Origin: a virus
Strand: one strand, 5' to 3'
UHGV virus genome: UHGV-0085244
Length of the DNA: 32,566 nt
Numbering within the stretch: the stretch's first letter is position 1; each line of letters starts with the position of its first letter. A program made the position numbers and the translations under genes. This document shows, piece after piece, positions 442 through 28,717 of this stretch. The notes under the pieces are model-generated. The model was not told where the DNA came from and did no database searches. It saw only the letters and a list, made by a program, of their open reading frames with translations.

Positions 442-1542
442 TCATTCCATTTCGAAATCATCAATCCTCACTTCAAGCTCCAGACTGGTCGTAAAACCGT
501 TATCCGGGCTGACGGTATGCGTCAGAGTCGTAATGGTCCATTCCGCATCATCTATCGGCTGTTTAAAGCCACTGACCTTCACAGGCATTTCTGTGTAGAG
601 ATCTGCCCGCCCTTCCGCCAGTTGTAGCGAGAATGACGCAACGCCGCGTTGCAGGCGTTCCCACTGCATTTTCGCTGCCCGTTCAGCGTTGCTCCGGTTG
701 GCATAAGTGCGATTAAGTACCAGCACGTTTTCATCCGTACCCACCAGGTAATCGCCCTGCTTCGCTTCCGGCTCTTTCTTCTGCTTCTTACTCCTGCGCT
801 TACGCTTCACCGTGGTGCTTTCTTTCTTCGCGGGTTCGCGGGTATGCAACCAGCTGGCAATTACGCCCGTGTAGGCTCCGCGATCTGCCAGGGTAAAGCG
901 GTGACTGTCGCCGTCCTTACGTGTGATAGTGATAACCGGTAGTGGTTTACCGCTGGCGCTTTTACCCTGTCCCTGACGGATGAATAACAGATTGCCATTT
1001 TTCACCGACGCAATAGCACCGTACTGGCGCGCCAGCCGCATCAGAAAACTGCCGTCACTCTCATTGGTCTGGTCTATATGCTCCACGGGTTTATCCGACA
1101 GGTCTTCACCCAGTGCCATCTTCAGTTTGTGCCGCGCAGCTATTTCCTTCACTACTTCCCCAACGGTGGTCTTGTGCCACGATTTTTCACGGCGGGTATT
1201 CAGCGTTTCACGAAAATCAGCACTTCGCGCCCGGATAGTCAGGCGGTCCGGTGCGCCAGTGTGTTCAATCTCGTCCACCGTGAATGCTCCTTTCGGGAAA
1301 AGCGGCTGCCCCTTCCAGCCCAGCGCCAGCGTGATGACCGCACCACGGCGCGGCAGCACGATTTTTCCGTCGGCGTCGTCCAGCTCCAGATCAAGCTGGT
1401 CTGCTTCAAAGCCCCGATTGTCCGTCAGCGTCAGACTCATCAGGCGGTTATCCAGCACAGTGGTGATATCCTTCCCCTCAATACTGATGCTGAATGCGGG
1501 AGTTTTGTTGCCTTTGTTAAGCAGTTCAGAGCTGAAATTCAC
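442..1542 (-). CDS. D: Tail protein D (late control gene D family)
   Basis: 366-aa ORF recognised as P2 gpD-like; GTG start overlapping the U stop (GTGA); position after U. Confidence 0.85.
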   Translation of the reverse strand: MNFSSELLNKGNKTPAFSISIEGKDITTVLDNRLMSLTLTDNRGFEADQLDLELDDADGKIVLPRRGAVITLALGWKGQPLFPKGAFTVDEIEHTGAPDRLTIRARSADFRETLNTRREKSWHKTTVGEVVKEIAARHKLKMALGEDLSDKPVEHIDQTNESDGSFLMRLARQYGAIASVKNGNLLFIRQGQGKSASGKPLPVITITRKDGDSHRFTLADRGAYTGVIASWLHTREPAKKESTTVKRKRRSKKQKKEPEAKQGDYLVGTDENVLVLNRTYANRSNAERAAKMQWERLQRGVASFSLQLAEGRADLYTEMPVKVSGFKQPIDDAEWTITTLTHTVSPDNGFTTSLELEVRIDDFEME

Positions 1543-2024
1543 GACAGCAGCCCTCCCACCGTTTTACTGATATCGCTTAAGGCAGACGTTGCCGTATCCT
1601 GCAAATTATTCAGCTGCGCACTGAGATCACCGAACATATCGGACAGGGATTCATCCACCCGTTTGAGCGACAGGGTGAACTCAATCCGGCGCGGCATACC
1701 GTCGCGGAAAAACTCCGTTTTAGTCTGATTCAGTCCCTCAATCACATACATGCCGTAAATCGTGCCGCTGCCTTCAATCAGGGGCCATGCTTTCCCCTGT
1801 TCTGCCATCTGCTCCAGTGCCAGCAACGACAGCCTGCCGCCTGTTATCTCCGGCATAAGAACGCCAGAAAGCGTCAGCATGTCGTTATCCGGTCCCAGAA
1901 ACTGCGTTGACGGGCGTCGGTTAACCCGGCTGTTAGCCGCATGTCTCCAGCTGCGCTGATACTGCAGCTCCTGATACGGAACGGTGCGCAGCATAAACAC
2001 GTACAATCCCAGCACCATCATCAT
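1539..2024 (-). CDS. U: Tail protein U
   Basis: 161-aa ORF starting MMMVLGLYVFMLRTVPYQELQYQR, as I recall for P2 gpU; synteny. Confidence 0.9.
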   Translation of the reverse strand: MMMVLGLYVFMLRTVPYQELQYQRSWRHAANSRVNRRPSTQFLGPDNDMLTLSGVLMPEITGGRLSLLALEQMAEQGKAWPLIEGSGTIYGMYVIEGLNQTKTEFFRDGMPRRIEFTLSLKRVDESLSDMFGDLSAQLNNLQDTATSALSDISKTVGGLLS

Positions 2025-5000
2025 GCGTCGTATCCCCCCTGATCGCTGTAGTTACTCCTGGCTTTTGCCTTCAGCCTGCGTTCACGTTCATCAAGCTGGC
2101 GGGCCACCTCCCGCGCAATATCCTGCGCACTTTGTCCTGGCTGCGTCTGAATGATGATCTGCGTCGGTGCCTCAATCCGTTGAACGAGCGGCACAGTGGC
2201 TGCGCGACTCACAATTGCTTCTCCACCTTTCGCGGGAAGTGCCAAGGGGTGCAACGGTGGAAGCTCTGCTGGCGCGGCAGCAACGCCCATCATTCCGGCA
2301 ACAACGGCAGCCAGTGCAGCTGTATTTCTCCGGCTGGTCACATTTGCCGGGCCGTTAACAATTTCCGGCCCGTTTTCACCGACGATGCCAAACTGCCCAC
2401 GCGGGATATAGCCGCCGCTGTCATACATCCCCGCAAAGCCATATCCCCATGACGGAAAACCACCCGATGGCATCATCACTTTACCGTCTGCATTCACCGT
2501 CGCAGGTTGCTGACGCGTCACGCTTTCCGGCAGTTTCGCCTTTGCAGCCTCTTTACTGACAATGCCGAGTTTATCCAGCAACCAGGAAACGCCAGATTTC
2601 AGGGAGTCCAGCGGATGCATAACCATATTCAGCCCTTCCGCCAGTGCCTCCCCGAATCGTCGCCCCATTGCCGCTGCGCTCTGCAGTTCGGCAGAGGTCG
2701 ACTTAACGGGCGTCAGCAGATCAGTAAACCAGCCCCACAGCGCCTGCACTTTGTCACCAATCCACTGGAACACAGGCTTAAGCGGTTCGAACGCTGCACT
2801 GATGGGACCTGCCGCCGCTTTGAATCCTTCCACCACGCCACCGAGAAATGCGGTGATGGGTTGCCAGTATTTCCAGACAACCAGTGCCACACCCGCCAGT
2901 GCAGTAACCACAAGACCTATCGGACTGAGCAAAGCACCTAACAGACCAGATACGGCATACAGGGCAACGCGCAACATCGCCAGTGGACCAGATGCCAGTA
3001 CTCGCAGCACCGTGCCTGCGGCAGCCAGCCCGCCGCGCAGTACCGCCAGAGGATTCATAAACATCACAGCAACAGCACGTAAAGCGGATAATCCAGACCG
3101 CAATAGTGCAACCGGCGCACCTGCTACAGTTTTCAGGACATTTCCCGTCAGTGATGCCGTACGGCGCAAAGACGACAACGGCGCAGTAAGTAAACCCGCT
3201 GCGTTACCCGATGAAGCAAGCCCGCGTCGCAGCACTGCCAGTGGAGCGCCAGCCAGCCAGGACAACGCGCTGCTGGTTCGTGTTACTGCTGCCATAACGG
3301 AAGGTAACGTTTTGATGCCCAGCACAGAGAATCCCAGACGGATGACTGCCAGCGGCCCCAGCACTGCAGCCAGCGCCACAGCCAGGGTGCCGAGGCCTAC
3401 GGTAACCGCAGCCACAATAGCGGCTACTTTCATCAGTGTGCCCGTCAGTTCCGGGTTAGCTTCCACCCAGCGACGCAACGCTCCCGTAACGCTTTTCACC
3501 GTGTACAGAATATCCATCAGCGGCTGGCGCAGCGTTTCGCCCAGGCTGCTGAAGGTATTCTGCGCTCCGGTTTTAACCAGCAACCACTGAGCAGAAAGTG
3601 AGTCCTTGTTGATGTCGGATTCTTTCTGCATGGAACCGAGCGCATCATTGCCCGCTGTCAGTTTTAGCTGGCGCTGCAGTTCCGGAAGGTTGTTTGCCAG
3701 TTTCGCCGCGTCATCACCAAACTCTTTACCAAACAACATGGTCATGGCAGACAGACGCTTGTCCTGCGGCAGTGCGTTCACCTTCTCCAGCACACGCTGG
3801 ATAGTTCCCATCGCATCCTTCGTCATCTGCTTTTCAATCACTTCAGGATTGAGTTTCAGCAGATTCATCCCTTCAAAGAAACTCTTGCTTTGCATGGTGG
3901 CAATGGACAATTCACGCACCATCGCGTTTGCTGCACTGGCTGCAACCTCCGGCGCAGCGCCCAGTGTCAGAAAGGTGGACCCCAGTGCCGCCGCTTTACG
4001 ATAATCCAGACGGTCAGCCACACCGCCCAGACGTTGCATCACATCAATGATGTCCGCCCCTTTCGACATGGCGTTATCATCCAGATAGTTCAGCGCATCG
4101 CCGAGCTGTTCAATATTGCGGGTAGGTATTTTGTAGAGCTGGGCGATTTTCCCCAGACTTTCTGACAGTTCATCCGCTGGCAGCTCAAAGGCTGTTGCCG
4201 CCTTTGCTGCCGTACTGGCGAAGGCCAGCAGGTCACGTTTCTGGTCTTCCCAGCTGTCGTCAGGGTTTGCGACGTTCATGCGCGCACCACCTTCAACCAG
4301 TGCAGCGAAGTCCACCGCACCGTTTTCCATCGGCAACTGTTCGCTGGCAGCCTTGATGGCATCCTGCATTTCATAAAAACGTGCAGTGCGGTTGCCATTA
4401 TCGTCACGCAGACCATTGACCTGCTTTGCCACACCTTTCATGGCATCTTCCATGCTGGTATAGCTTTTTACTGCCGCCATCACTGGCGCACCCATTGCCA
4501 GCCCTGCAGCCGTGGTGGTGGCTCCGGCACCTGCAATACGATCACGCACCTCCAGCGAACGGGCATAACTGGCACGCGCTGCATTCATCCTGCGCTGAGC
4601 TTCCCCCAGTCGCTTCAGCCGTGCCTCCTGTTTCGAAAGTTCCTGGTTATAACGTGATGTTTCACGGGCTAAACGGGCAGTTGCTCCCGCATCGTCTTTC
4701 GCAGAAATTCCCGCCCGGTACAGTTCAGCACGCACAAGCGCCGTCTGCTGCTGCAGCTTTTTCTGGCGTTCTTCCAGGCGCTGAACAGCCAGCCGTTGAC
4801 GGCCCAGAGCAACAACCTGACGTTGCGAAGGCGGCCCCATCGTTCCCAGTTCCTGACTGAGCAAATTTGCACGCTGGCGGGCATAGTTCAGCCTGTCGCC
4901 TAATTTCTGATTTTCTGCCTGCAGCTTTCGGAAGCTGTCCAGACTGCTCCCGGCCTGATCAAGCTGCTTTATTGCATCGCGGGATTTTTTGACAGCAGCA

Positions 5001-6106: not shown

Positions 6107-7279
6107 TTACGCGCTGACCTGGCTGGCGAAATTCACCAGGTACTGATCGGTGATGCGCTGACGCAGCATCAGGTTTTCAAGTGGCGGCACTGGCGTGTAG
6201 TCGTAGTCGATGGTGAGTTTTCCGGCTTTCAGCGTGTCTTTGTCGTTCACCGACTCATCCAGCCAGCAATCACCACCAATGAGATAGCCCTGACTGACCA
6301 GGCTGCGCATTTTGGCGCGGATACCTTCGATAATGTCGCGGGCCAGCGACGGGTTAAGCGGTTTATCCACCGCCCACATGTGTGCTTCTGCCATCGTGTC
6401 CATCAGCACCTGCGCCGTGCGGGTGTAGTTTTCGAAGGCAAAGAGCGGGTCATCACTCAGGCAGCGGGAACCCCAGAAGCGGAAACCGTCTTTACGCACA
6501 AGCGTGGTGACGTCGTTCTGGTTCAGCAGACCTGCATCGGTTGCCGGGTCCTGCAGATCCCAGAACACATCTGCAGAAATTCCGGTGACACCGTTCACGC
6601 CCACGTTGGACAGGCTTTTGTGCCATCCGGTCTGCTCGTCAATTTTGGCGCGCAGACCAAGCGCACGGGCGGTGGCATATGCCGTTGCTTCGGCATTCAG
6701 CACCGTGTCCCAGCCAGTAAAGTCAGGCCAGATCAGCATCCCTTCGCGCTGGCTGAAGTTTTCGCGGTAAGTGATCGCCTCCTGCACTGTCTTGCAGCCA
6801 TACGCTGACAGGTAAGCAAATCCACGCAGGCTTTGCGCCACGCTCAGCAACTCAGTAGCTACCGCCTTGGTATCGTGGCCTGGCACGCCGAGAATGCGCG
6901 GTTTAACGCCGAGCTGTGACTGGGCAGATAACAGGGCTTTCATACCTGTTTTTTTACCTTCAGCAGTCACTGCTCCGATGATATTGGTCGTGGTTTCTTC
7001 TTCCGTTTCACCCTGCGGCACACGCACAACAACGGTCACGGGTTTTGCCTGGTCAGCGATGGCATCCAGCGAACGAGCCAGCGTGCCTGACTCACCCGCT
7101 TTACCGCTGGCAGTCAGCACATCAGTGATCAGCACGGGTTTATTAAGAGGAAACATTTTTGCATCGGCATCATCGCCCGTGCAGACCATACCCACGATGG
7201 CGGTGCTCACCGTGGTAATGGATCGGGTGCCTTCGTTGACTTCAACAACGCGCACCCCGTGGTGGTAATCCTGAGCCAT
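6107..7279 (-). CDS. FI: Contractile tail sheath protein
   Basis: 390-aa ORF, P2 FI-like sheath; synteny. Confidence 0.9.
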
Positions 7280-7373: not shown

Positions 7374-7421
7374 AAATGACGGTATTTGTCTGCTTTCAGG
7401 GATAATCAAAATAAAGCTGAT

Positions 7422-7988
7422 TCAGGGAGATTTATTGTTCTTATTTGCCGGAAATTTTCGATAAATGGTAGAAACGCCTACATCAAAAATCAGTGCAATA
7501 CGCTGTCTTGATTCTCCGGCCTCGAGTAAACGCCCAATCTGTGCCCACTGTTCGCTGGTCAACTTAGGACGGCGTCCACCTACTCTGCCTTTAGCACGAG
7601 CTGCAGCCAGCCCCGCCCTGGTACGTTCAACTATCAGTTCGCGTTCCATTTCAGCCAGGGCACCCATGACATGAAAAAAGAAACGGCCCATTGGGGTGCT
7701 GGTATCAATACTGTCAGTCAGGCTTCGGAAATTCACGCCACGCTGGCGCAGCTCTTCTATCAGCGTAACAAGATGCCGCATACTGCGCCCCAGTCTGTCC
7801 AGCTTCCAGACAACCAGCGTGTCTCCTGCCGATAGTGTCCTGAGCAGCTTTTTCAGCCCCGGTCTGTCGGACTTGGTGCCACTGATTTTATCCTCAAAAA
7901 TCCGCTCACATCCCGCACAGTTCAGTGCATTGCGTTGCAAATCGGTGTTCTGGTCATTTGTTGACACGCGTACATAGCCAATAAGCAT
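7422..7988 (-). CDS. Serine-recombinase DNA invertase (Hin/Gin/Cin/Pin family)
   Basis: N-terminus MLIGYVRVSTNDQ with catalytic-Ser context, C-terminal HTH; start placed at the ATG 6 nt after a GGGGG RBS (track ORF 7422..7994). Confidence 0.9.
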   Translation of the reverse strand: MLIGYVRVSTNDQNTDLQRNALNCAGCERIFEDKISGTKSDRPGLKKLLRTLSAGDTLVVWKLDRLGRSMRHLVTLIEELRQRGVNFRSLTDSIDTSTPMGRFFFHVMGALAEMERELIVERTRAGLAAARAKGRVGGRRPKLTSEQWAQIGRLLEAGESRQRIALIFDVGVSTIYRKFPANKNNKSP

Positions 7989-8043
7989 GATCATCCCCCT
8001 GAATAAAAACCGGAGATGATGCCAGTTAGCCGTTATCTCTGCA

Positions 8044-8068
8044 TTTTCATAAACGTTGGTTTGGGAGA
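8044..8068. repeat. Invertase crossover site (hix/gix-like), invertase-proximal
   Basis: TTTTCATAAACGTTGGTTTGGGAGA; inverted-repeat partner at 9592-9616. Confidence 0.7.
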
Positions 8069-8405
8069 GGGAGCAAAATTAGGCGCAGCGGTGTGTGTGA
8101 CCGGCTCTACAGGCTATATGACTATCCCGGCAATGGTCGCCGGGAAAGAACGGGTGATCATATTGCAGTGGTTTGATGCCTCTACAAGTGGTTATGCGAC
8201 ACCAGTAACTGCGAATTTCCCTATTGCATTCCCAAATGAGTGCATGATTCCGTTATTTAGTGATGTATCAACTGGGGCTGCTGATTTGAGTTCTACAACT
8301 GCATATAATTTGGCTGTTGGTAGAACGTATTACACTGGTATGACAAAAACTCAAATTACATGTGCTGGCTACGGTGGCTTTAGAGTTTTCGCGATTGGAT
8401 GGTGA
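8069..8405 (+). other. Silent alternative tail-fibre C-terminal cassette (Sv'-like), expressed only after inversion
   Basis: Part of ORF 8016..8405; shares ILQW and FPIAFPN motifs with the C-terminus of H; no plausible promoter or start of its own. Confidence 0.65.
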
Positions 8406-8410
8406 TTAAT

Positions 8411-8830
8411 ATGTTTTATTCTGCAAAAGAAAATGCGTTCTACGCTGATGAGCTAAAAAGTATTTATGAAAATGCAGGTAGCTGGCCTGACGATGCCGTT
8501 GAAGTAGACTATTCCGTATTCGTTGAGTTTGCCGGAGAATCACCTAACGGAAAATTACGCGCTCCTAATTCTGATGGTTTACCTGAATGGATAGATATTC
8601 CCGAACCAACTGAAGAGGAAATTATTGCGTTGGCAGAAGCCGAAAAATCGCGACTGCGTGCTTCAGCTGACTCTGAAATAGAATGGCGGCAGGACGCCGT
8701 TGATGCGGGGATCGCGACGGAAGAAGAAACTGTTTCATTAGCCGAATGGAAAAAATACCGGGTGCTGCTGATGCGAGTTGATACAGCAGACCCGGACTGG
8801 CCTACTCCTCCGGCGACTCAGGCCAGTTGA
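8411..8830 (+). CDS. Alternative tail-fibre assembly chaperone (U'/G'-like), silent orientation
   Basis: [16 protein letters not shown]... parallels the minus-strand assembly protein [18 protein letters not shown]...; starts 6 nt after the Sv' stop. Confidence 0.75.
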
Positions 8831-9233
8831 TATCTGGTGCGCTGGATATGTCCACAGATTCCAGCGCATCGAGATAATCCAGCCACTCGTTATACTGGGC
8901 CTTCTCGTCGTCTGTAAGTCGTCCCAGCGCAGCTTTACCCGGCCACTGCTTGCTGTTTATATACTCATTAGCCTGATCGATACGATACTGTTTTTCAGCT
9001 TCAGCTGCTGCGATTTCCTCCTCATGGCTTAAAGGTGGAATGTCTACCCATGCCGGCATTCCATCCTCAGTAGCTCCACGAGTTTTACCCTCTGGTGGCA
9101 TCCCCGAATATTCAGTGAATGTCTCATCTGAGACGGCTATGAGATCGTCAGGCCAGTTTCTACTCGCTTCATAAACATCTCTGAGCTCATCAGGGTAGAA
9201 AGCGTTATTTAATGCTGAATAAAAATAAGCCAT
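8802..9233 (-). CDS. G: Tail-fibre assembly chaperone (currently expressed)
   Basis: 143-aa ORF directly downstream of H, P2 gpG-like. Confidence 0.85.
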
Positions 9234-9236
9234 TTA

Positions 9237-10652
9237 TTAATACCCCACAGCAAAATAGTTAAACCCGCCAGCGCCGATGGATGATTCAGCGTTGGTTCCT
9301 GCCTGATAAGCGCGTAACTGAAAATCAGTGCTCGAAAAATTTTGGGCGGTTAACACAAAACCTTGCCCTACCCCCCCAACTGACTGATCGGTTGCCACAA
9401 CACACAATGCCCTGTTTGGAAATGCAATTGGGAATGATACTGTTTCTGGGGATGTTTTCGTTTTGGTTATTGCCCATTGAAGAATTAACCCGCCTGGCAG
9501 GTATTGATACCCCGAATCGGCTCGCTGATTACCAAATGAAGACATGTCCGGAATCTGTCCGGAACCAGTGCCAACATTTTTTTTTGCCGCATCTCCTAAA
9601 CCAAGGTATGTGAGAAGACCAGCTACATCCTTTCCACTCAAATTGGTAAGCGTATTGTCCAGCGGTTGTTTACCTGCCAGCGCATTAAGCATTGTCGTGG
9701 CAAAGTTCGGATCATTCCCCAGTGCCGCCGCCAGTTCGTTCAGTGTATCCAGTGCAGCAGGTGCAGAACCCACCATTCCTGCAATCGCCGATTTCACAAA
9801 AGCCGTAGTGGCAATCTGTGTATTGTTGACCGACTGCGCCGCCGTGGGGGCTGTTGGCGTTCCGGTGAGTGCCGGACTCGACAACGGTGCTTTTAGTGCC
9901 AGCGCATTGTTAATGGTGGTACTGAAATTCGGATCATTGTTAATGGCTGCGGCTATTTCTTTCAGCGTGTCCAGCGTGGCTGGCGCACCATTAATAAGGG
10001 CCGTCAGTGCCGCCTGTACAAACGCAGTGGTCGCAACCTGCGTGGTATTATTCCCCGCCGCTGGCGTTGGCGCTTTGGGGGTTCCGGTAAATGTCGGGCT
10101 GGCTTTTGGCGCGTACTGTGAATGCGGGTCCGGTGCGGCAAGATGTTTTGCCATCTGATCATCCGCGTACACCTTCAGCTCCAGTGCCTTGTCATCCACA
10201 TACTTGCGGGTTGCCAGCACTACAGCAGGGTCGATTTTCAGGGTGATATTGTCCGTGCTGCTGGTAATCAGCACCATGCGCACGGTCTGAGTGCGCCCGC
10301 TACCTTCAGCCAGTTGCGGCTTATAGCTTTCCGGGCAGTTGCCCACGGCAATCAATGCCCCTGACTCATCAAACAGGCCCACTTCACGTATCCACCAACC
10401 GCCCTCGTTTTCAGGGATCACCTGTTCGGCAATAATCTGGCTGCTGTTCTGCGGGTCGATATAAAGCATATTCAGCGCAGCCCGGCGTTTCTCATTTACC
10501 AGTGCCGTCTGCTTTGCGTCCGGCGTTGGCAATACTCCACCGCCATCGCCCACCGCCATATGGGTAATTTTTAGCGGCACACCGAGCGCGGCGGCGCTGG
10601 CAAGTTTCGCCGCGCCAATATCCGTCAGCAGGGTATAAAATTTTGTGCTCAT
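9237..10652 (-). CDS. H: Tail-fibre protein; constant N-terminal part fused to the variable C-terminal cassette in the current orientation
   Basis: 471-aa ORF; N-terminus MSTKFYTLLTDIGAAKLA... as I recall for P2 gpH; crossover site at codons about 346-354. Confidence 0.9.
   Translation of the reverse strand: MSTKFYTLLTDIGAAKLASAAALGVPLKITHMAVGDGGGVLPTPDAKQTALVNEKRRAALNMLYIDPQNSSQIIAEQVIPENEGGWWIREVGLFDESGALIAVGNCPESYKPQLAEGSGRTQTVRMVLITSSTDNITLKIDPAVVLATRKYVDDKALELKVYADDQMAKHLAAPDPHSQYAPKASPTFTGTPKAPTPAAGNNTTQVATTAFVQAALTALINGAPATLDTLKEIAAAINNDPNFSTTINNALALKAPLSSPALTGTPTAPTAAQSVNNTQIATTAFVKSAIAGMVGSAPAALDTLNELAAALGNDPNFATTMLNALAGKQPLDNTLTNLSGKDVAGLLTYLGLGDAAKKNVGTGSGQIPDMSSFGNQRADSGYQYLPGGLILQWAITKTKTSPETVSFPIAFPNRALCVVATDQSVGGVGQGFVLTAQNFSSTDFQLRAYQAGTNAESSIGAGGFNYFAVGY
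9592..9616. repeat. Invertase crossover site (hix/gix-like) inside tail-fibre gene H
   Basis: TCTCCTAAACCAAGGTATGTGAGAA, reverse complement of the 8044-8068 site with about 5 mismatches. Confidence 0.7.
9660..10091 (-). repeat. Tandem in-frame duplication of about 70 codons within H
   Basis: Protein repeats TTQVATTAFVQAALTALINGAPATLDTLKEIAAAINNDPNFSTTINNALALKAPL and NTQIATTAFVKSAIAGMVGSAPAALDTLNELAAALGNDPNFATTMLNALAGKQPL. Confidence 0.7.
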
Positions 10653-19088: not shown

Positions 19089-20855
19089 ATGAACACCACA
19101 CTGACACCCGCAGATCTCGATCCCCGTCGGCAGGCCATGCTGCTGTACTTTCAGGGATACCGCGTAGCCCGCATTGCTGAAATGCTGGGCGAGAAAGTTG
19201 CAACCGTTCACAGCTGGAAAAAACGCGACAAGTGGGGTGACTATGGGCCGCTGGATCAGATGCAGCTCACCACCGCCGCACGCTACTGCCAGCTCATTAT
19301 GAAGGAGCACAAAGAAGGGAAAGATTTCAAAGAGATTGACCTGCTGGCGCGCCAGTCGGAGCGCCACGCGCGGATCAGCAAGTTTAACAATGGCGGCAAC
19401 GAAGCCGACTTAAACCCTAACGTCGCCAACCGCAACAAAGGCCCGCGCCGTCAGCCGGAAAAGAATGTTTTCACCGATGAGCAGATTGAGAAGCTGGAAG
19501 AAATCTTCCATTCCTCCATGTTCAACTACCAGCGCCACTGGTGGGAAGCCGGAAAAGCCAACCGCATCCGCAACCTGCTGAAGTCACGCCAGATCGGCGC
19601 GACCTTTTACTTTGCCCGTGAAGCCCTGATTGACGCCCTGCTTACCGGACGTAACCAGATTTTCCTTTCCGCCAGTAAGGCACAGGCCCACGTCTTTAAA
19701 CAGTACATCATCGACTTCGCCAAAGAAGTGGAGGTGGAGCTGAAAGGCGATCCGATGGTGCTTCCCAACGGGGCCACTCTTTACTTCCTCGGCACCAATG
19801 CCCGCACGGCCCAGAGTTACCACGGCAACCTGTATCTGGATGAATATTTCTGGATACCGAAATTCCAGGAGCTGCGCAAAGTGGCTTCCGGTATGGCTAT
19901 TCACAAAAAATGGCGACAAACCTATTTTTCCACGCCATCCAGCCTGACCCACAGTGCTTATCCGTTCTGGTCCGGTGCACTGTTCAACCGTGGACGCAAC
20001 AAAGCCGACAAGGTGGACATCGACCTGTCCCATAGCAATCTGGCCCCCGGCCTGCTGTGCGCAGACGGGCAATACCGCCAGATAGTCACCGTGGAAGATG
20101 CGGTGCGCGGCGGCTGTAACCTGTTCGACCTTGACCAGTTGCGCATGGAGTACAGCCCGGACGAATACCAGAACCTGCTGATGTGCGAGTTCGTGGACGA
20201 TCTCGCGTCCGTGTTCCCGCTCAGCGAGCTGCAGGCGTGCATGGTGGACAGCTGGGAAGTCTGGACCGACTTTCATGCTCTGGCCCTGCGCCCGTTTGGC
20301 TGGCGCGAAGTGTGGATCGGTTATGACCCGGCAAAAGGTACGCAGAACGGCGACAGCGCCGGATGCGTGGTGGTGGCACCGCCAGCCGTGCCGGGCGGTA
20401 AGTTTCGCATTCTTGAGCGTCACCAGTGGCGCGGGATGGACTTCCGCGCCCAGGCTGACGCAATCAAAAAACTGACCGAGCAGTACAACGTGACCTACAT
20501 CGGCATCGACTCAACCGGCGTTGGTCACGGGGTTTACGAGAACGTGAAAGCGTTCTTTCCTGCCGTCCGGGAGTTTGTCTACAACCCCAACGTTAAAAAC
20601 GCCCTGGTACTCAAGGCCTACGACATTATCAGCCACCGCCGTCTGGAGTTTGACGCCGGACATACCGACATTGCGCAGTCATTTATGGCAATCCGTCGCA
20701 CCACCACCGCCAGTGGCAACCGCCCGACCTATGAAGCCAGCCGCAGCGAAGAAGCCAGCCACGCCGATCTGGCATGGGCAACGATGCACGCACTGTTTAA
20801 CGAACCGCTGCAGGGCGAATCCGCCAATACCAGCAATATTGTGGAGATTTTTTGA
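19089..20855 (+). CDS. P: Terminase large (ATPase) subunit P
   Basis: 588-aa ORF, P2 gpP-like; stop overlaps the Q start (TGATG). Confidence 0.9.
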   Translation: MNTTLTPADLDPRRQAMLLYFQGYRVARIAEMLGEKVATVHSWKKRDKWGDYGPLDQMQLTTAARYCQLIMKEHKEGKDFKEIDLLARQSERHARISKFNNGGNEADLNPNVANRNKGPRRQPEKNVFTDEQIEKLEEIFHSSMFNYQRHWWEAGKANRIRNLLKSRQIGATFYFAREALIDALLTGRNQIFLSASKAQAHVFKQYIIDFAKEVEVELKGDPMVLPNGATLYFLGTNARTAQSYHGNLYLDEYFWIPKFQELRKVASGMAIHKKWRQTYFSTPSSLTHSAYPFWSGALFNRGRNKADKVDIDLSHSNLAPGLLCADGQYRQIVTVEDAVRGGCNLFDLDQLRMEYSPDEYQNLLMCEFVDDLASVFPLSELQACMVDSWEVWTDFHALALRPFGWREVWIGYDPAKGTQNGDSAGCVVVAPPAVPGGKFRILERHQWRGMDFRAQADAIKKLTEQYNVTYIGIDSTGVGHGVYENVKAFFPAVREFVYNPNVKNALVLKAYDIISHRRLEFDAGHTDIAQSFMAIRRTTTASGNRPTYEASRSEEASHADLAWATMHALFNEPLQGESANTSNIVEIF

Positions 20856-21889
20856 TGGGAAAGAGTAAGAAGAACCGAGCTGCGGCGACGAAACAGATCC
20901 AGCTTAAAAGTCAAACTACAGCCGAAGCATTCAGCTTCGGCGATCCCGTTCCTGTTCTGGACCGCCGTGAACTGCTGGACTATGTGGAATGCGTACAGAT
21001 GGACCGTTGGTATGAGCCGCCCGTCAGCTTTGACGGACTGGCGCGCACCTTCCGCGCCGCCGTGCATCACAGTTCCCCGATTGCAGTAAAGTGCAACATT
21101 CTGACCAGTACCTATATCCCTCATCCGCTGCTCAGCCAGCAGGCTTTTTCGCGTTTTGTGCAGGACTATCTGGTATTTGGTAACGCCTACCTGGAGAAAC
21201 GCACGAACCGATTCGGTGAAGTTATCGCCCTTGAGCCTGCCCTGGCAAAATACACCCGACGTGGATTAGACCTGGATACCTACTGGTTTGTACAGTATGG
21301 CATGACCACGCAGCCCTATGAATTTACGCAGGGCAGCATCTTTCATCTGCTGGAGCCGGATATTAACCAGGAGATTTACGGGCTGCCAGGCTATCTCTCC
21401 GCCATCCCGTCAACCCTGCTCAACGAGTCCGCAACGCTGTTTCGCCGGAAGTATTACATCAACGGCAGCCACGCAGGTTTCATTATGTACATGACCGACG
21501 CAGCACAGAACCAGGAGGATGTGAACAATATCCGTCAGGCAATGAAAAGCGCCAAAGGACCGGGTAACTTCCGCAACCTGTTTATGTATTCGCCCAACGG
21601 CAAAAAGGACGGCATCCAGATCATCCCGTTATCAGAGGTTGCGGCGAAAGACGAGTTTCTTAACATCAAGAACGTTAGCCGCGATGACATGATGGCAGCG
21701 CACCGCGTGCCACCGCAGATGATGGGAATTATGCCGAGCAACGTTGGTGGGTTTGGAGACGTGGAAAAAGCTAGTCGAGTATTCGTTCGTAATGAATTGA
21801 TTCCACTTCAAAAAAGATTAATGGAATTAAATGAATGGCTTAATGACGAAATTATTCGTTTTGACGAATATAAATTAGGCGATGCTTGA
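20855..21889 (+). CDS. Q: Portal protein Q
   Basis: Track ORF 20852..21889 begins with TTG; ATG at 20855; P2 gpQ-like. Confidence 0.9.
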   Translation: MGKSKKNRAAATKQIQLKSQTTAEAFSFGDPVPVLDRRELLDYVECVQMDRWYEPPVSFDGLARTFRAAVHHSSPIAVKCNILTSTYIPHPLLSQQAFSRFVQDYLVFGNAYLEKRTNRFGEVIALEPALAKYTRRGLDLDTYWFVQYGMTTQPYEFTQGSIFHLLEPDINQEIYGLPGYLSAIPSTLLNESATLFRRKYYINGSHAGFIMYMTDAAQNQEDVNNIRQAMKSAKGPGNFRNLFMYSPNGKKDGIQIIPLSEVAAKDEFLNIKNVSRDDMMAAHRVPPQMMGIMPSNVGGFGDVEKASRVFVRNELIPLQKRLMELNEWLNDEIIRFDEYKLGDA

Positions 21890-21898
21890 TTAAAGCCT

Positions 21899-21932
21899 GT
21901 TTAAACTGGCTGTCGAAACAGCCAGTTTAAAC
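21899..21932. other. Perfect 15-bp-stem hairpin (4-nt loop) between convergent Q and the cargo operon; possible bidirectional terminator
   Basis: GTTTAAACTGGCTGT-CGAA-ACAGCCAGTTTAAAC; no flanking U-tract on either strand. Confidence 0.5.
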
Positions 21933-22775
21933 ACCGGCACCAATGAAATCGCCATATGAATCTTCTTCAAGGCTGATGTATTCCACCCTCCATTGATCCA
22001 TCCGCCTCAATGCATACAGGGAGAAATGAGTATCGGCAACAGCAATGCACGTATTCAATTCTATAAGCTCTGAATGTCCCAAGATTGGATCACCATAAAA
22101 CTTATAAAACAATGCCTTTAGATCAGAACAGGTTTGTTCAGCCGCCCCTCTGGCATCGGGGCCACCTTCAGTTGCATCATAAACAACATTGATAGAAAGC
22201 TCATATGGTATGCCTTCCTCAAGATCGTTAAATCTTTCTTCGCCCAAATCGAAAAAAACTCCGATCAAATGCTCTGCGTTTGTGGCGATAATGTCCGCAA
22301 CTTCTTTTTCGAAAATAAACTTTTTATCCTCGTCGTAAGCCCGCAAGCGCTCTTCAAACGAGTTAGGAAACGCTGGACGACCATACTTAGCTGCTAACCA
22401 TTGCTTAAGAGCTTGTTTCTCTTCTGTGCTAATGGAGAATGCCGGATCGTTTTCCTCACAACGGAAAGCTTCTTTAGAAATGATGACTTTTCTTTCATGC
22501 CGAAGCTCTACTGCGTTCTTCTTAGCACTTTCTGGGTTTTCAAAGCATAGATCGAGGATTCTCGGATGCTTAGCTCTTTTCATCTTGCTTGACCCCTTTT
22601 TCAAGGGGCCAAACATCAGTTCCACGTTTTTTTCAGAATTACTCTGTAAATCACAATCATGCGTTATAACTACAACTTTATGGTTCGTTTCATCAGGCTT
22701 CAGAAGTCCAAGTGAAACGGCATCATCATGTTTAAGAACATGCCCCTGACGCCATGATGTTCCTCGTACCAACAT
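21927..22775 (-). CDS. Hypothetical protein, third gene of the cargo operon; function unknown
   Basis: 282-aa ORF with ATG start 9 nt after the preceding stop; AT-rich; no P2/186 counterpart recognised. Confidence 0.7.
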   Translation of the reverse strand: MLVRGTSWRQGHVLKHDDAVSLGLLKPDETNHKVVVITHDCDLQSNSEKNVELMFGPLKKGSSKMKRAKHPRILDLCFENPESAKKNAVELRHERKVIISKEAFRCEENDPAFSISTEEKQALKQWLAAKYGRPAFPNSFEERLRAYDEDKKFIFEKEVADIIATNAEHLIGVFFDLGEERFNDLEEGIPYELSINVVYDATEGGPDARGAAEQTCSDLKALFYKFYGDPILGHSELIELNTCIAVADTHFSLYALRRMDQWRVEYISLEEDSYGDFIGAGV

Positions 22776-22784
22776 AAATGTGAT

Positions 22785-23447
22785 TTATTCCTCTACTGTT
22801 CTAGGAATTGAAATAGATGACTTCCAATCATCTGTCGGTTTCGCCTTGCTTGCTAAGTAATTGGTCGATTCAGCAGCTGCATTCATCGCTTTAGCTTCAT
22901 CAATCAGTACCTGAACTGGCTTGTTCCAATCCTCACCTTCTTTTATTAAGTCCATCAATGACCTACCATTGAATGCTTTCATTTTCACCAATAGCTTCGC
23001 ATCATTGAGTCCAGCTTTGGAAAAAGAGTCAGCAACATTACTGAGGTTGGTAATGAATTGGACTTTTGAAGCATCATCAGGCTGGTTCTCCCCTGACAAC
23101 CATTTATAGAGAGCCTGCCGAGTTATCCCCAAATCCTTAGCCAGTTCTGACATTGATGGAGACAGCACTTCTCGAATATTAGCCAAATGTTGGGCAACAT
23201 TCCTGACATCAACCTCAGGAGAAATTGCAGGCGTGTACGTTGACTCTATGGAATCAAATGCAAACTGAACCCTTGGCTGAACATACTGACGCCATTGCTT
23301 ATAAGCATTTACAGGGTATGAAGCCCCCGTACCAACTAATAGTAAAGATGCGGCGACAGCAACAACACCTGATACACATGAGCTTGACTGCGAATCTGGA
23401 GTATACCGATCTACAGAGCCTATGCTTCCAGTAGGAATTGCATACAT
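22785..23447 (-). CDS. XRE-family helix-turn-helix protein with N-terminal hydrophobic segment, second gene of the cargo operon
   Basis: HTH ...NVAQHLANIREVLSPSMSELAKDLGITRQALYKWLSGENQP; start placed at the ATG (MYAIPTG...) after a GGGGGTGA RBS; the track's longer form 22785..23555 would overlap the upstream gene by 89 nt; start uncertain. Confidence 0.65.
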   Translation of the reverse strand: MYAIPTGSIGSVDRYTPDSQSSSCVSGVVAVAASLLLVGTGASYPVNAYKQWRQYVQPRVQFAFDSIESTYTPAISPEVDVRNVAQHLANIREVLSPSMSELAKDLGITRQALYKWLSGENQPDDASKVQFITNLSNVADSFSKAGLNDAKLLVKMKAFNGRSLMDLIKEGEDWNKPVQVLIDEAKAMNAAAESTNYLASKAKPTDDWKSSISIPRTVEE

Positions 23448-23466
23448 TTTAGTCACCCCCGTTGTT

Positions 23467-24276
23467 TCAGTGCCATTTAGCACGGGCAAAATCTGAAACC
23501 ATGCCTTCAAATGCTTCTTTAACTTTACTATGCAACGAAAGAATCTGTTTTTCAATTAACTGCAAATCAGTTGACATGTTGCCTTCAACATAATGATCTG
23601 TATCAATTATTGCGTGCATACGATGTTCTGTATTACTAAATCTCGGCAGCGGCAGTAAACCATTAGGAATCATATCTGGCGGAAAACCTAGCTGACCATT
23701 CATCTTATGTATACGTGAAACCATAAATCCATTAGAGATCAGTGGCTCAACACATGTCTGATATACAGACTCTTGTATGGACTGTATTGGCGTCCATCCA
23801 AAATCAACACCATGAAGTTCCTTTACAAGATACTGCTCAATTGTTTCGCTTTTCTCAGGAAACACAGCATCCAAATATCGAAGCCCAATCCTGCTTACCA
23901 ACGATGGCTTAGCAAATTCAAGAACTTTGCTCAGACCAAGTATTAATGACGAGATGAAAGGTACATGATTATCATAATCTGTTGTATGGAACGTAATGAA
24001 ATCGTTGCCTAAAACAAAACCAGACCTTCTATCTGCATCAATCATCAACCAACTTGTCACAGGCTCAAATGAATGTACCGGTGGCTCATTGGGGTTTTTC
24101 ATTTCAAATTTCAGCTGAGTTGTATTGGAAACTTCAAATAAAGGAAATCCTTCAACTCTTAGCGCATCTTGTATGTCTGGAACATACTTACTCATTGCAG
24201 CTACTGGAGTAAACTTTACTTGCACCAATGCGTAGTAAACGGGCGCATTGGACATACGTTCGCTGTTAGTACTCAT
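23467..24276 (-). CDS. Hypothetical protein, first gene of the cargo operon; function unknown
   Basis: 269-aa ORF with AGGAGG RBS 5 nt before the ATG; N-terminus (SNAPVYYALVQVKF) faintly recalls an uncharacterised TIGR04255-type family, from memory and unverified. Confidence 0.7.
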   Translation of the reverse strand: MSTNSERMSNAPVYYALVQVKFTPVAAMSKYVPDIQDALRVEGFPLFEVSNTTQLKFEMKNPNEPPVHSFEPVTSWLMIDADRRSGFVLGNDFITFHTTDYDNHVPFISSLILGLSKVLEFAKPSLVSRIGLRYLDAVFPEKSETIEQYLVKELHGVDFGWTPIQSIQESVYQTCVEPLISNGFMVSRIHKMNGQLGFPPDMIPNGLLPLPRFSNTEHRMHAIIDTDHYVEGNMSTDLQLIEKQILSLHSKVKEAFEGMVSDFARAKWH

Positions 24277-25224: not shown

Positions 25225-27639
25225 TTAATACAGATCCCGCCACTTATCATCTTCCTGCAAACGCTGGTTCCGATAGAAGATACGCAGGCCTGCTCCTGAC
25301 GGAATACTGCCACCGCGAAGGAGTAAATCGACCTCTTTCTCGCTTCCATCAAATCCTCTGGACTTCAGTTCATAGACGAGCTGCTGTCGCTGATGATCTG
25401 TAATTCGCTGTTTGTAGTCTCTACGCCGTTTCGGTTTCACCAGGCGTAACCTTGCAGCCAGTTCCCGGCGCTCTTTTTTGTTCATACTGTGCAGGTAATC
25501 GTGCAATTCCTTGTCATCCATGCAGGTGATATCCGTTCTGGTATCCCCATCAGCTGATTTGTCTTTCCCTTGTTGGTACAAATTTTCAGCAAGGGGACAG
25601 TTATTGCCACGAGTCCAAGGGGCGCAAGCGCCCTGGTCGGCTGCCGCCTCCTGAACGTCAACGGCCTTACGAACCATTTTCCACTTCACTACATGAGTGC
25701 AGATCTTGCCCTCTGCAATGGGTGACCAGATGCCATAAATACGAATACCGTGATCGCCATAGGCGGTTGGCTCTTCGTTGATTTCATAAGCGGTTCTGAT
25801 GAGGTGATATTTGCGGGGAACCAGTACGCCGCCCTGCTTCATGATGTAGGTGGCAAAACAACCAGCATCAGCAGCAGCCAGAATGGCATCAAGACGCGGG
25901 TTATCCAGTACCGGCGCACCTGCTTTTTTGTCACCCTGTTGCCTTGCCGCCTGACCAGCCAGCAAGCGAAGTTCACGGTAAGCCTGACGTCCCGGAATAC
26001 CAAAGAAGCGGAATTGCTGAACACGATGCAGAGACGCCCAGGCATTAACGTATTCAGCGTTATCACGCAGGGATTTACCCGTTTCCTTGCTGATCTCGCC
26101 AGCCAGACCACGCCCGTCAATGTTCTTACTGATGTATTTCGCGATGTAGCTTGTCGGCGTTCCTTTGCGCGGGTTTATCAGCTCAGATTTAAAGCGTGGA
26201 CCAGTGTTATTACCCAGTTCCTCGCGGTCTTCACGGATGGCAAACTTACGCAACAATGCAGTAATGGCGCGGCGGTCTTTTTTGCGCATGAAACACAACA
26301 GGTGCCAGTGAACTGTACCGTCATGATGCGGCTCAGCCACCCGCACGCCATACCAGCGCAACCCGGCTTTGTGCATCGCCTTACGAAATGCAGCAAACAT
26401 GCCGACCAGATAATCGCTGCTTTGTCTTACCGTCGCATTTGTCCAGGTTGGGTTTGGTCTGCCGTTATTGAGCGTGGAATGGAAACGTGACGGACAGGTA
26501 ATGGTGTAGAAAACGGCGCAGTCACCGCGCATTTCCGCGATAAGCTCCAGACCTTTAACACAGGCCATCATCTCATTGCGGCGGTGCGCCGGGTTGCTGC
26601 TGCTGGCGTTTACCACGTCTTCCATATCCAGCGTGTCGCCCTCTTCGTTCACCAGTTCATGAGAACGGAAAAACTCCAGTGACTTGCGGCGCTGCTCACG
26701 TTTATGCATCACGGCTTCATAGCTGACATAGGGAGATGCTTTTTTGCTGACCAGGCAGACAGCACGCAACTGCTCTTCCCGCCATTCGCAACGCATTTTC
26801 CATAATTTCCGGTACCACCAGTCGGCGCACAACATACGCGCCAGCGAACCCGGAATGAGTTCATAGGGCACGGGTTTACGGCGGTTTCTTTTCCGACGGA
26901 GTTGCTCAAACGCAGGCGGGATGACATCCAGACGCAGGGTTTCCGCTGCCACCTTTTCCCATGTCTTGCGGATTTCTTCTGGCTTAACGTCATCGGTGGC
27001 ATACAAATCACCACAAGCTGCATCAAGGCACATGCTCATATGCGCAGCGACAAGGGTAGACAGGCGTTTCACCTGATCCTGACTCATTTCAGGCAGAATC
27101 AGCAGGCCGTCCAGCCCTACATGGCTTGCCATAAAACGAAAAGATGCAGATAGCTGGCTGTCGCGTACATGCTCCAGTCGTTCCAGACATGGCTTAATCG
27201 TCTCACGTAAATAGCGGGAATAAGCCTTTGGCCTGCCCAGGCTGCTGAAGTATTCAATACGTTGCATCAGCGGCTTGCTGATATGGGAGGGCTGGGCGCT
27301 GACGTCTACCAGAATGACCATGTCCGGGTTAAAACGCTGCTGCTCATGCGCCAACTTTGCCCGGCTAATGAGCTTATCCTGCTCTATTTCGCGTTGGACA
27401 GGATCACGGGATTCATTAAAGAAATAACGCTCCCAGACCTGATCACTCAGTGCCTCGCGGCGCAGTTGTTCCTGCTCGTTATCGGCAGCGTACAGAGTGA
27501 TCAGGTTTGAAAGCGCAGAAACCGGCGCAACTTCCGCCGGGTCCAGATAAGGGTTAATGGCCTTTTTCGGGCTGTTCCATGAGAACGATGCGGCAGCCTC
27601 TTTAAAGCCGCAGCAGTTGCTCATATCGGCATGGCTCAT
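25225..27639 (-). CDS. A: Replication initiation protein A (rolling-circle nicking endonuclease)
   Basis: 804-aa ORF with HWHLL (HUH-like) and YIAKYISK tyrosine motifs; P2 gpA-like. Confidence 0.9.
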
Positions 27640-28493
27640 GCACGTACTCCGTACACGGCAGAACTATCCACGCCACGCGAATAATCAAATCCCACCCAGC
27701 AGCGCGGCCCGGAAACAGCAATGATTTCTGTTGCTGATTTACTCTCACCAGCTGCTACGCCGATGCTGCGTTTTACCTTGATATAGTGGTGAGTAAAATT
27801 GCGATACAGCGAACGGATCAGGGATGTGTCACTGTTAGAAACAATTACCGGATGTCCTTCTGATGACCGATGTTCAAGAACGGATGCCAGGTGATACTGG
27901 TCATCTTCAGTAAAGCCGTCAGCGTGATAGCCGGAAAACGTACCGTCATAAGGCGGATCGCAATACACCACATCCCCCGCCTTCAACATCGCCAGCGTTT
28001 CATCAAAGCTGGCGCAGATAAACGTTGCTTGCTGGGCTTTCTCTGCAAATGCGCGAATTTCTTTTTCAGGGAAATACGGATTTTTATAATTACCGTATGG
28101 AATGTTGAAATGCCCGCTCTTGTTATAACGACATAACCCACGGTAACCATGACGATTGAGATACAGGAAATATACCGCTTTCATGAAATCAGTAATTTCA
28201 GTGGAGTAATTAAACTCCTGTCTTATGTTGTAATAAGCCAACTCCCTGTTTGCTTCCTCAAATAAAGCTCTGGCACGAGATATAAACGCCTCGCAATCAG
28301 CAGCAACCTTTTTATAGAGGTTGATTAAATCAGGATTAATGTCCGCAACCAGATAGCTGGGGTAATCCGTCTCCATCATCACAGCACAGGAACCCGCGAA
28401 AGGTTCAACCAGTCGCGGGCCAGCAGGAAGGTGTTTTTTCAGTTCGGACATAATGGCGGTTTTATTTCCCGCCCATTTCAGGATGGTGCTCAT
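27636..28493 (-). CDS. DNA adenine methyltransferase (Dam family, orphan)
   Basis: N-terminus [18 protein letters not shown] (AdoMet motif), CDPPY catalytic motif; start at the ATG overlapping the upstream stop (ATGA); track ORF 27636..28553 has a TTG start. Confidence 0.9.
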
Positions 28494-28717
28494 ACAGCAC
28501 CTCCGTTGTAATGTTTGCCTTTCAGCTCTGCAATTTCCTGGCAGGTAATGCAAAGCTGCACACCCGGAATGGCACGGCGGCGTGCTGGCGGAATTGGCGC
28601 TTCACACTCAATGCAAAGCACGCGAGACACGCCCGGTGTTTTGGCACGGGCAGCACGGATATGGCGCTGGCGTTCTTCTTCAACGCGCTGCTGTACGAGA
28701 TCCATTGCATCAGCCAT
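28490..28717 (-). CDS. TraR/DksA-family C4 zinc-finger protein
   Basis: 75-aa ORF with CIEC-X17-CITC. Confidence 0.75.
   Translation of the reverse strand: MADAMDLVQQRVEEERQRHIRAARAKTPGVSRVLCIECEAPIPPARRRAIPGVQLCITCQEIAELKGKHYNGGAV

Follow-up and report, generated by a model that had tools for sequence, protein, structure and literature searches.

The 32,566-nucleotide virus genome UHGV-0085244 (the whole of it is called the window here, with positions counted from its first letter) is a P2/186-like (Peduoviridae) prophage of Escherichia coli that is apparently complete in gene content. Between the genes FI and H it carries a module made up of a serine DNA invertase gene and a fibre-gene segment that lies between two crossover sites, and this module is the subject of the present analysis. 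Read along the minus strand the order is the constant 5′ part of the tail-fibre gene H (Hc), a site, the expressed variable 3′ part of H (Hv), its chaperone gene, the convergent silent chaperone gene (chaperone′) and silent cassette (Hv′), the second site, and the invertase gene. A first-pass annotation, made by a model from the letters and their open reading frames, had proposed an invertase of the Hin/Gin type, a fibre segment that inverts with the reading frame preserved, and chaperones specific to each cassette, and all computational tests that were run supported this proposal.

The invertase gene lies at positions 7422..7988 on the minus strand, as first annotated, and encodes a protein of 188 amino acids assigned to the Din family (Gin/Cin/Pin/Hin type) by Pfam and by its identity to Gin and Cin. 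Its open reading frame extends from 7422 to 7994, and an in-frame ATG at 7994 would make a protein of 190 amino acids; the start at 7988 (MLIGYVRVST) was favoured because it gives an ungapped alignment to Gin and Cin. The Pfam models matched were Resolvase (2.3e-53, amino acids 3-135) and HTH_7 (5.7e-16, amino acids 138-181), and over its full length and without gaps the protein is 76% identical to Gin of phage Mu and 79% identical to Cin of phage P1. The catalytic serine (Ser9) is present within MLIGYVRVSTNDQ (YVRVST motif), and the residues Q150/R153/L154 and K46/K47/R50 are the same as in Gin and Cin. The numbering of Hin is presumably shifted by one residue relative to that of the window protein (Q151 for Q150, and so on). 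Hin residues Q151/R154/L155 and the basic residues at 47/48/51 are uniquely conserved in the Fis/enhancer-dependent invertases (PMC3798978). In domain layout, size (~185-195 amino acids), catalytic serine, Fis-contact residues and the possession of two 26-bp sites the system agrees with the Din subfamily, and the enzyme is, to judge from its sequence, an orthologue of Gin and Cin.

The left crossover site (8044..8069, 26 bp) reads TTTTCATAAACG-TT-GGTTTGGGAGAG, with the core TT at 8056-8057. The right crossover site (9591..9616, 26 bp) reads ATCTCCTAAACC-AA-GGTATGTGAGAA on the plus strand, with the core AA at 9603-9604, and its reverse complement is TTCTCACATACC-TT-GGTTTAGGAGAT. The central dinucleotides of the two sites are thus identical (TT) in inverted orientation, and the TT/AA core is that of the cix sites. 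As is usual for Din invertases, imperfect inverted half-sites of 12 bp flank the 2-bp core in both sites. Inverted repeats of 25 bp had been described at 8044-8068 and 9592-9616; the positions stand, but pairing of each position i with position 17660-i showed the repeats to be imperfect (20/25 complementary), and they are better described as two 26-bp sites. A repeat search at default settings missed the pair, the longest perfect stretch being only 7 bp, and the sites were assessed instead by coordinate-paired comparison and by a degenerate motif search. Efficient RecA recombination needs repeats much longer than 7 bp.

Alignment to known invertase crossover sites, which had been suggested as a check, was performed against the P1 record, in which cixL, cixR, the crossover points and the enhancer are annotated, and against the Mu record, in which the boundaries of the G segment are annotated. 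Both window sites are in register with the annotated cixL/cixR of P1 and with the gix sites at the boundaries of the Mu G segment, and the window, cix and gix sites have the invariant pattern ...TC..A.AC.T.GGTTT...GA... in common. Compared by eye, the right site matches P1 cixR at 21/26 positions. The degenerate site motif gave 4 strand hits in the 32.6-kb window where 0.23 were expected, a number reached in 0/100 shuffles, and only two places in the window match the motif with up to 1 mismatch. A Min- or shufflon-like multi-site system (at least three sites and more than two cassettes) was also considered and was rejected because the motif matches only at these two sites; the window holds two sites and two cassettes only.

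Gene H (9237..10652, minus strand) encodes a fibre protein of 471 amino acids, the N-terminal domain of which is of the tail-collar fibre type and the tip of which is Gp53-like_C. Its constant 5′ part, Hc (9605..10652, minus strand; amino acids 1 to ~349), matches Pfam Phage_tail_fib (5.1e-65), and its expressed variable 3′ part, Hv (9237..9602, minus strand), encodes a gp53-like tip (Pfam Gp53-like_C 9.3e-18, amino acids 385-471). The right site spans H codons 346-354 (LLTYLGLGD), which agrees with its earlier placement at codons ~346-354, LTYLGLGD being amino acids 347-354. The silent alternative 3′ cassette, Hv′ (8058..8405, plus strand), encodes another gp53-like tip (Pfam Gp53-like_C 8.9e-9) and is without a 5′ part; the plus-strand open reading frame that contains it is 8016..8405, with the stop codon at 8403-8405. 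The first-pass annotation was right that this cassette reads IFINVGLGEG over the left site and has the motifs ILQW and FPIAFPN in common with the expressed tip. Beyond these two motifs and a shared C-terminal GGF..FA.G motif, the alignment of the tips is loose. The expressed tip matches a putative tail fibre protein of known structure (PDB 4mtm, E=4e-6) and the silent tip weakly matches the foot of the R1-pyocin fibre (6cxb, E=1.3e-4); by these similarities both would fit receptor-binding fibre tips.

Each fibre variant has its own assembly chaperone gene, as had been claimed, and both genes belong to the Pfam family Caudo_TAP. The expressed chaperone (gpG/U analogue; 8802..9233, minus strand; 1.9e-38) and the silent chaperone′ paired with Hv′ (8411..8830, plus strand; 9.4e-34) converge tail to tail with a 29-bp overlap, and their proteins are clearly homologous to each other. 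The RefSeq annotation of chaperone′ uses an alternative start at 8399. Both cassettes and both chaperone genes are intact open reading frames. In the RefSeq records of the Ecol_224, CM151386 and NCTC11023 loci the silent cassette is a separate "gp53-like domain-containing protein" gene, the annotated start of which is an ATG upstream of the crossover site (corresponding to window 8016-8405), and the sites and the segment are unannotated.

The segment from 8056 to 9604 (1,549 bp, both core dinucleotides included) was inverted in silico. The product is an in-frame H′ of 465 amino acids that is the same as H through residue 353 (…LLTYLGLG) and continues as …EGAKLGAAV…ILQW…FPIAFPN…FAIGW, and chaperone′ comes to lie directly downstream of H′ in the same direction. 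This product bears out the earlier statement that the reading frame of H is kept after inversion.

Both orientations exist in E. coli isolates. By exact-protein look-up H′ was found as WP_250543005.1, and the exact H protein was likewise found in E. coli assemblies. The E. coli contig CABVVJ010000013.1 (GCA_902501765.1, locus L006) is the inverted window with 100.000% identity over 8,717 nt (0 mismatches or gaps), and the E. coli locus L007 (ERR11812265) is the window as it stands, with 99.993% identity over 13,416 nt (1 mismatch). The occurrence of one orientation only, which the first-pass annotation had named as the outcome that would speak against it, is therefore not what was found, as the exact opposite orientation is present in a public E. 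coli assembly. The exchange is confined to the stretch TTGGTTT at 8056-8062, because the two sites differ right beside both of its ends, and this mapped 7-bp interval contains the predicted core dinucleotide. At lower identity, the inverted query gave contiguous matches over the H junction in five closed E. coli chromosomes, the window orientation was matched over both of its junctions in two, and the chaperones WP_060615093 and WP_060615094 (identical proteins) occupy swapped positions in Ecol_224 and CM151386. When the whole 3.4-kb region was required at a coverage of at least 80%, no complete E. coli genome matched in either orientation, and exact matches were confined to draft assemblies.

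The L006 contig ends at window position 7936, which is 127 nt beyond the last orientation-specific base (8063; shared stretch 7936-8062), and a branch at the left junction in a de Bruijn graph with k=127 would give such an end. This is only suggestive of mixed orientations in the sample, or of a second prophage with the same invertase side; the right junction is unbroken.

Invertases of the Hin/Gin/Cin type bind as dimers at their sites, form an invertasome with the Fis-bound enhancer, cut the site cores, rotate by 180 degrees and religate the strands. In the window, dimers of the invertase would bind the two inversely oriented 26-bp sites and, by analogy with Hin, Gin and Cin, would assemble together with Fis on an enhancer within the 5′ end of the invertase gene. 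Ser9 would then make double-strand cuts at the central TT/AA dinucleotide of both sites, one pair of subunits would turn by 180 degrees, and the strands would be religated with 8056-9604 inverted. Since the right site lies within H codons 346-354, the first ~350 residues of the fibre, which probably provide the baseplate attachment and the shaft, are kept at each flip. The gp53-like receptor-binding tip, which makes up the final 112-118 residues, would be exchanged along with the downstream chaperone gene, and the particles released by a lysogen population would be of two kinds that differ in receptor specificity, a form of bet-hedging. Beside general knowledge, the source for the mechanism of the invertase was PMC3798978. 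The rate of flipping in this lysogen and the binding of different receptors by the two tips are matters that we infer.

The putative Fis-dependent recombinational enhancer (sis) comprises nucleotides 19-90 of the invertase gene (7899..7970, minus strand) and is equivalent to the annotated nucleotides 19-90 of P1 cin. It lies ~86-157 bp from the left site and is identical to P1 at 55/72 nucleotides and to Mu at 53/72. Because this stretch is also coding sequence the enhancer is rated here as putative, and the dependence of this switch on Fis and the enhancer is likewise presumed by analogy. Scans of the region for promoters gave hits at chance level (4 found, 4.2 expected), with a promoter above chance for neither cassette, and the number of terminator-like hits was not clearly above chance (7 found, 4.0 +/- 1.9 expected). 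A weak terminator-like hairpin followed by TTTATT is located in the interval that separates the left site from the start of the invertase gene (8008-8027, minus strand) and might insulate the invertase from read-through of the late operon.

Our reading of the locus, to which we give a probability of roughly 0.93, is that it is a Gin/Cin-type (G-segment/C-segment-type) host-range switch in a P2-like prophage. A number of observations weigh against it. Conservation of the enhancer is inseparable from coding constraint; in the promoter scan, the stretch from the left site to the start codon of the invertase yielded no sigma-70-like promoter; the left half-site of the left site ends in G instead of C (AAACG-TT, where the family consensus is AAACC); and the two orientations come from separate isolates and not from a single culture. 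The last three of these would also fit a frozen switch, in which the layout was inherited from an active ancestor and no longer flips here, perhaps for want of invertase expression or owing to a suboptimal left site, so that the orientation is fixed, and the existence of invertase-less relatives such as Ecol_224 points the same way. We nevertheless regard a frozen switch as improbable. The inverted form with 0 mismatches in 8.7 kb and the window form with 1 mismatch in 13.4 kb were both found in E. coli isolates, so that the inversion took place too recently for point mutations to have built up. A frozen state also sits poorly with an intact invertase reading frame in which all checked catalytic and Fis-contact residues are conserved, and with the intact state of both cassettes and both chaperone genes.

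It is very improbable that the flip mainly serves the lysogen, one orientation making a receptor-blocking fibre-tip protein that excludes other phages. There is a precedent in the e14 element, where inversion of the P segment yields a chimeric fibre protein that blocks adsorption of T2 (PinQ/StfE2; PMC12529663), and the Z/fun hotspot of P2 usually carries cargo for superinfection exclusion or defence; but H is a late gene of an apparently complete prophage and is expected to be off in the lysogen, a promoter of its own was found above chance for neither cassette, and the parts are arranged as in Mu and P1, where their function is the host range of the virion. That both orientations were instead produced by RecA-dependent recombination between short repeats or by assembly error, with the recombinase irrelevant, is scarcely credible: RecA can in principle invert DNA that lies between inverted repeats, and both exact orientations come from short-read draft assemblies, but the longest perfect repeat has 7 bp, the exchange maps to the 7 bp that hold the predicted core of a cix/gix-like site, the swap also appears in genomes that are complete and closed, and in experiments P2-like prophages gave mixtures that were stable and reproducible, as is typical of site-specific inversion (PMC4272514).

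The host-range switch proposed for the window was compared with the known systems of this type. With the G segment and Gin of Mu it shares the gene order, with the invertase transcribed in the direction of the fibre gene, and the 26-bp sites, which are in register with gix and are translated as an LGL motif in both fibres (QNLGLQE in Mu, TYLGLGD in the window). It differs from Mu in the size of the segment (1.55 kb, compared with ~3 kb), in the variable part, which is a gp53-like tip of 112-118 amino acids unrelated to Mu Sv, in the chaperone genes, which overlap by 29 bp in the window and are separated in Mu, in the core dinucleotide (TT/AA, compared with TC/GA in gix), and in its P2-like backbone. 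With the C segment and Cin of P1 it shares the TT/AA core of cixL/cixR, a fibre-side half-site GGTAT that matches the unusual GGTAT of cixR, and a site that encodes YLGL in both fibres (QYLGLRE in P1 S, YLGLG in the window). In P1, however, cin is on the other side and faces the segment, cixL overlaps the 3′ end of cin, and the C segment measures 4.2 kb. The Min system of p15B has multiple sites and cassettes, unlike the two sites of the window.

Invertible tail-fibre loci are also known from P2-like prophages, one example being that of Fin in Fels-2. Counterparts of the window include phage 500465-1, Cartapus and Klebsiella phage KP12, which have the same backbone and the invertase in the same position (between fibre chaperone and FI); in these and other phages the flanks are 95-99% identical in DNA, a DNA invertase is annotated and two fibre-assembly genes are present, with phage 500465-1 carrying a different cassette pair. 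In two P2-like prophages of the enteropathogenic E. coli (EPEC) strain E2348/69 coexisting orientations were detected by whole-genome sequencing (Goldberg et al., PMC4272514). One of the EPEC loci has three repeats, and its four variants were confirmed by polymerase chain reaction (PMC4272514), whereas the window has two sites and two variants. DNA invertases that invert adjacent genes are frequent cargo of the P2 hotspot (bioRxiv 10.1101/2024.10.15.618418). The P segment of e14 with PinE (PinQ/PinR in trans) likewise has a Din-family invertase beside a pair of fibre cassettes, and pinE-annotated loci are ~90% identical to part of the invertase and cassette region; e14, however, is a defective lambdoid element with a reported role in host defence, whereas the module of the window belongs to a myovirus prophage that is apparently complete.

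Some part of the 3.4-kb query is matched by 2,337 of the 5,426 complete E. coli genomes, and the same gene set is present in all of the 40 best matches among these genomes and in all top-ranked P2-like phages. The finding is thus already known, being a textbook device that is on record for this phage group and this host species, and the locus is to be regarded as a clean, well-resolved example of a classical mechanism and not as a discovery. For the prediction of host ranges of P2-like prophages and of tailocin-like derivatives it means that two receptor-binding tips should be counted per genome, and identification of the receptors of this cassette pair would help the prediction of phage-host pairs in E. 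coli. Invertible fibre loci can also break or mis-orient short-read assemblies.

The first-pass annotation had further suggested that receptor-binding tips are exchanged horizontally, citing the silent cassette as richer in A+T than H. The G+C content is 46.0% for the silent tip, 47.0% for the expressed tip and 55.3% for the constant part of H; the statement therefore holds relative to the constant part only and fails relative to the expressed tip, and A+T richness was rejected as evidence specific to the silent cassette, as both cassettes have nearly equal G+C content. The argument from composition is weak, but the conclusion itself is supported by the positions at which homology breaks off. 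The homology shared with phage 500465-1 is lost at 8078 and regained at 9592, that is, at the two sites, and in CM151386 the invertase and segment are 90.5% identical to the window while the constant part of H is only 66% identical.

In E. coli NCTC11023 (locus L011; NZ_LS483297.1 2,608,513-2,617,074) the segment is located in a non-P2 prophage remnant by tonB/yciI. This copy has 91% identity over window 7784-9612 and identical chaperone proteins, and its homology ends at the right site; the cassette and its sites therefore move between unrelated backbones. Also present in the remnant are DUF2612 and baseplate J/gp47 genes, a gp53-like fibre of only 211 amino acids and a recombinase of its own (182 amino acids). 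NCTC11023 carries the segment also in a P2-like prophage that is probably without the invertase. The P2-like prophage of Ecol_224 (locus L002; NZ_CP018948.1 3,374,116-3,381,980) has the segment in the orientation opposite to that of the window; window 7408-8034 is cleanly absent, and with it the invertase gene, and the left crossover site is retained. From the same pattern of hits, the P2-like copies in MS6192, MS6193, CH468 and NCTC11023 are probably likewise without an invertase and in the opposite orientation. Such copies are either locked or rely on a different prophage to provide the invertase in trans, and action in trans between invertases is documented (PMC12529663).

The breakpoints in 500465-1, the two copies in NCTC11023, and the loss of the invertase in Ecol_224 with the left site kept lead us to a tentative proposal, which we hold to be possible and short of probable. 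Together with its sites and the 5′ end of the invertase gene, where the enhancer would lie, the segment may form a portable receptor-binding module that passes from one myovirus backbone to another, unrelated one by exchange at or close to the sites, and copies without an invertase may be flipped in trans by co-resident prophages, so that the host range in a polylysogen would be controlled by a network. If true, this would extend known biology, with the exchange of cassettes at Din sites and the trans-complementation of Din invertases being old ideas.

With regard to its setting, the window carries all genes for morphogenesis, lysis and replication as well as repressor and integrase genes. On the minus strand the order is D, U, T, E, FII and FI (sheath; 6107..7279, minus strand), then H, I, J, W, V, S and R, followed by the lysis and capsid genes; beyond the capsid genes are the terminase and portal genes, the replication gene A, a CI/CII-type control region and the integrase gene. 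Klebsiella phage KP12 and a series of Klebsiella prophages are 96-97% identical across 83% of the first 25 kb of the window. H is the penultimate gene of the late baseplate operon, and the module between FI and H occupies the Z/fun hotspot of P2-like prophages. The remark in the first-pass annotation that the switch is absent from P2 itself is correct, as in P2 (NC_001895) the place between G and FI is taken by fun(Z) and there is no invertase gene.

Elsewhere in the window, the old/tin hotspot (21927-24276, minus strand) lies between the portal gene Q (20852..21889) and gene A (25225..27639). Its three open reading frames (282, 256 and 269 amino acids) matched no Pfam or PADLOC family, apart from a weak HTH_3 hit in the middle one, and an anti-phage system is a possible identity of this cargo. 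Directly downstream of gene A is a gene for a Dam-like, D12-class N6-adenine methyltransferase (27636-28553, minus strand), which PADLOC lists as an orphan methyltransferase (7e-112). A sister prophage (L008; GCA_053948635.1, DBLDIM010000003.1, locus 1373-3476) has an identical H protein. It carries an insertion between the tail genes S and V that is absent from the window and encodes a DUF4435 protein and an AAA_15/SMC_N ATPase, a pair that resembles AriA/AriB of PARIS.

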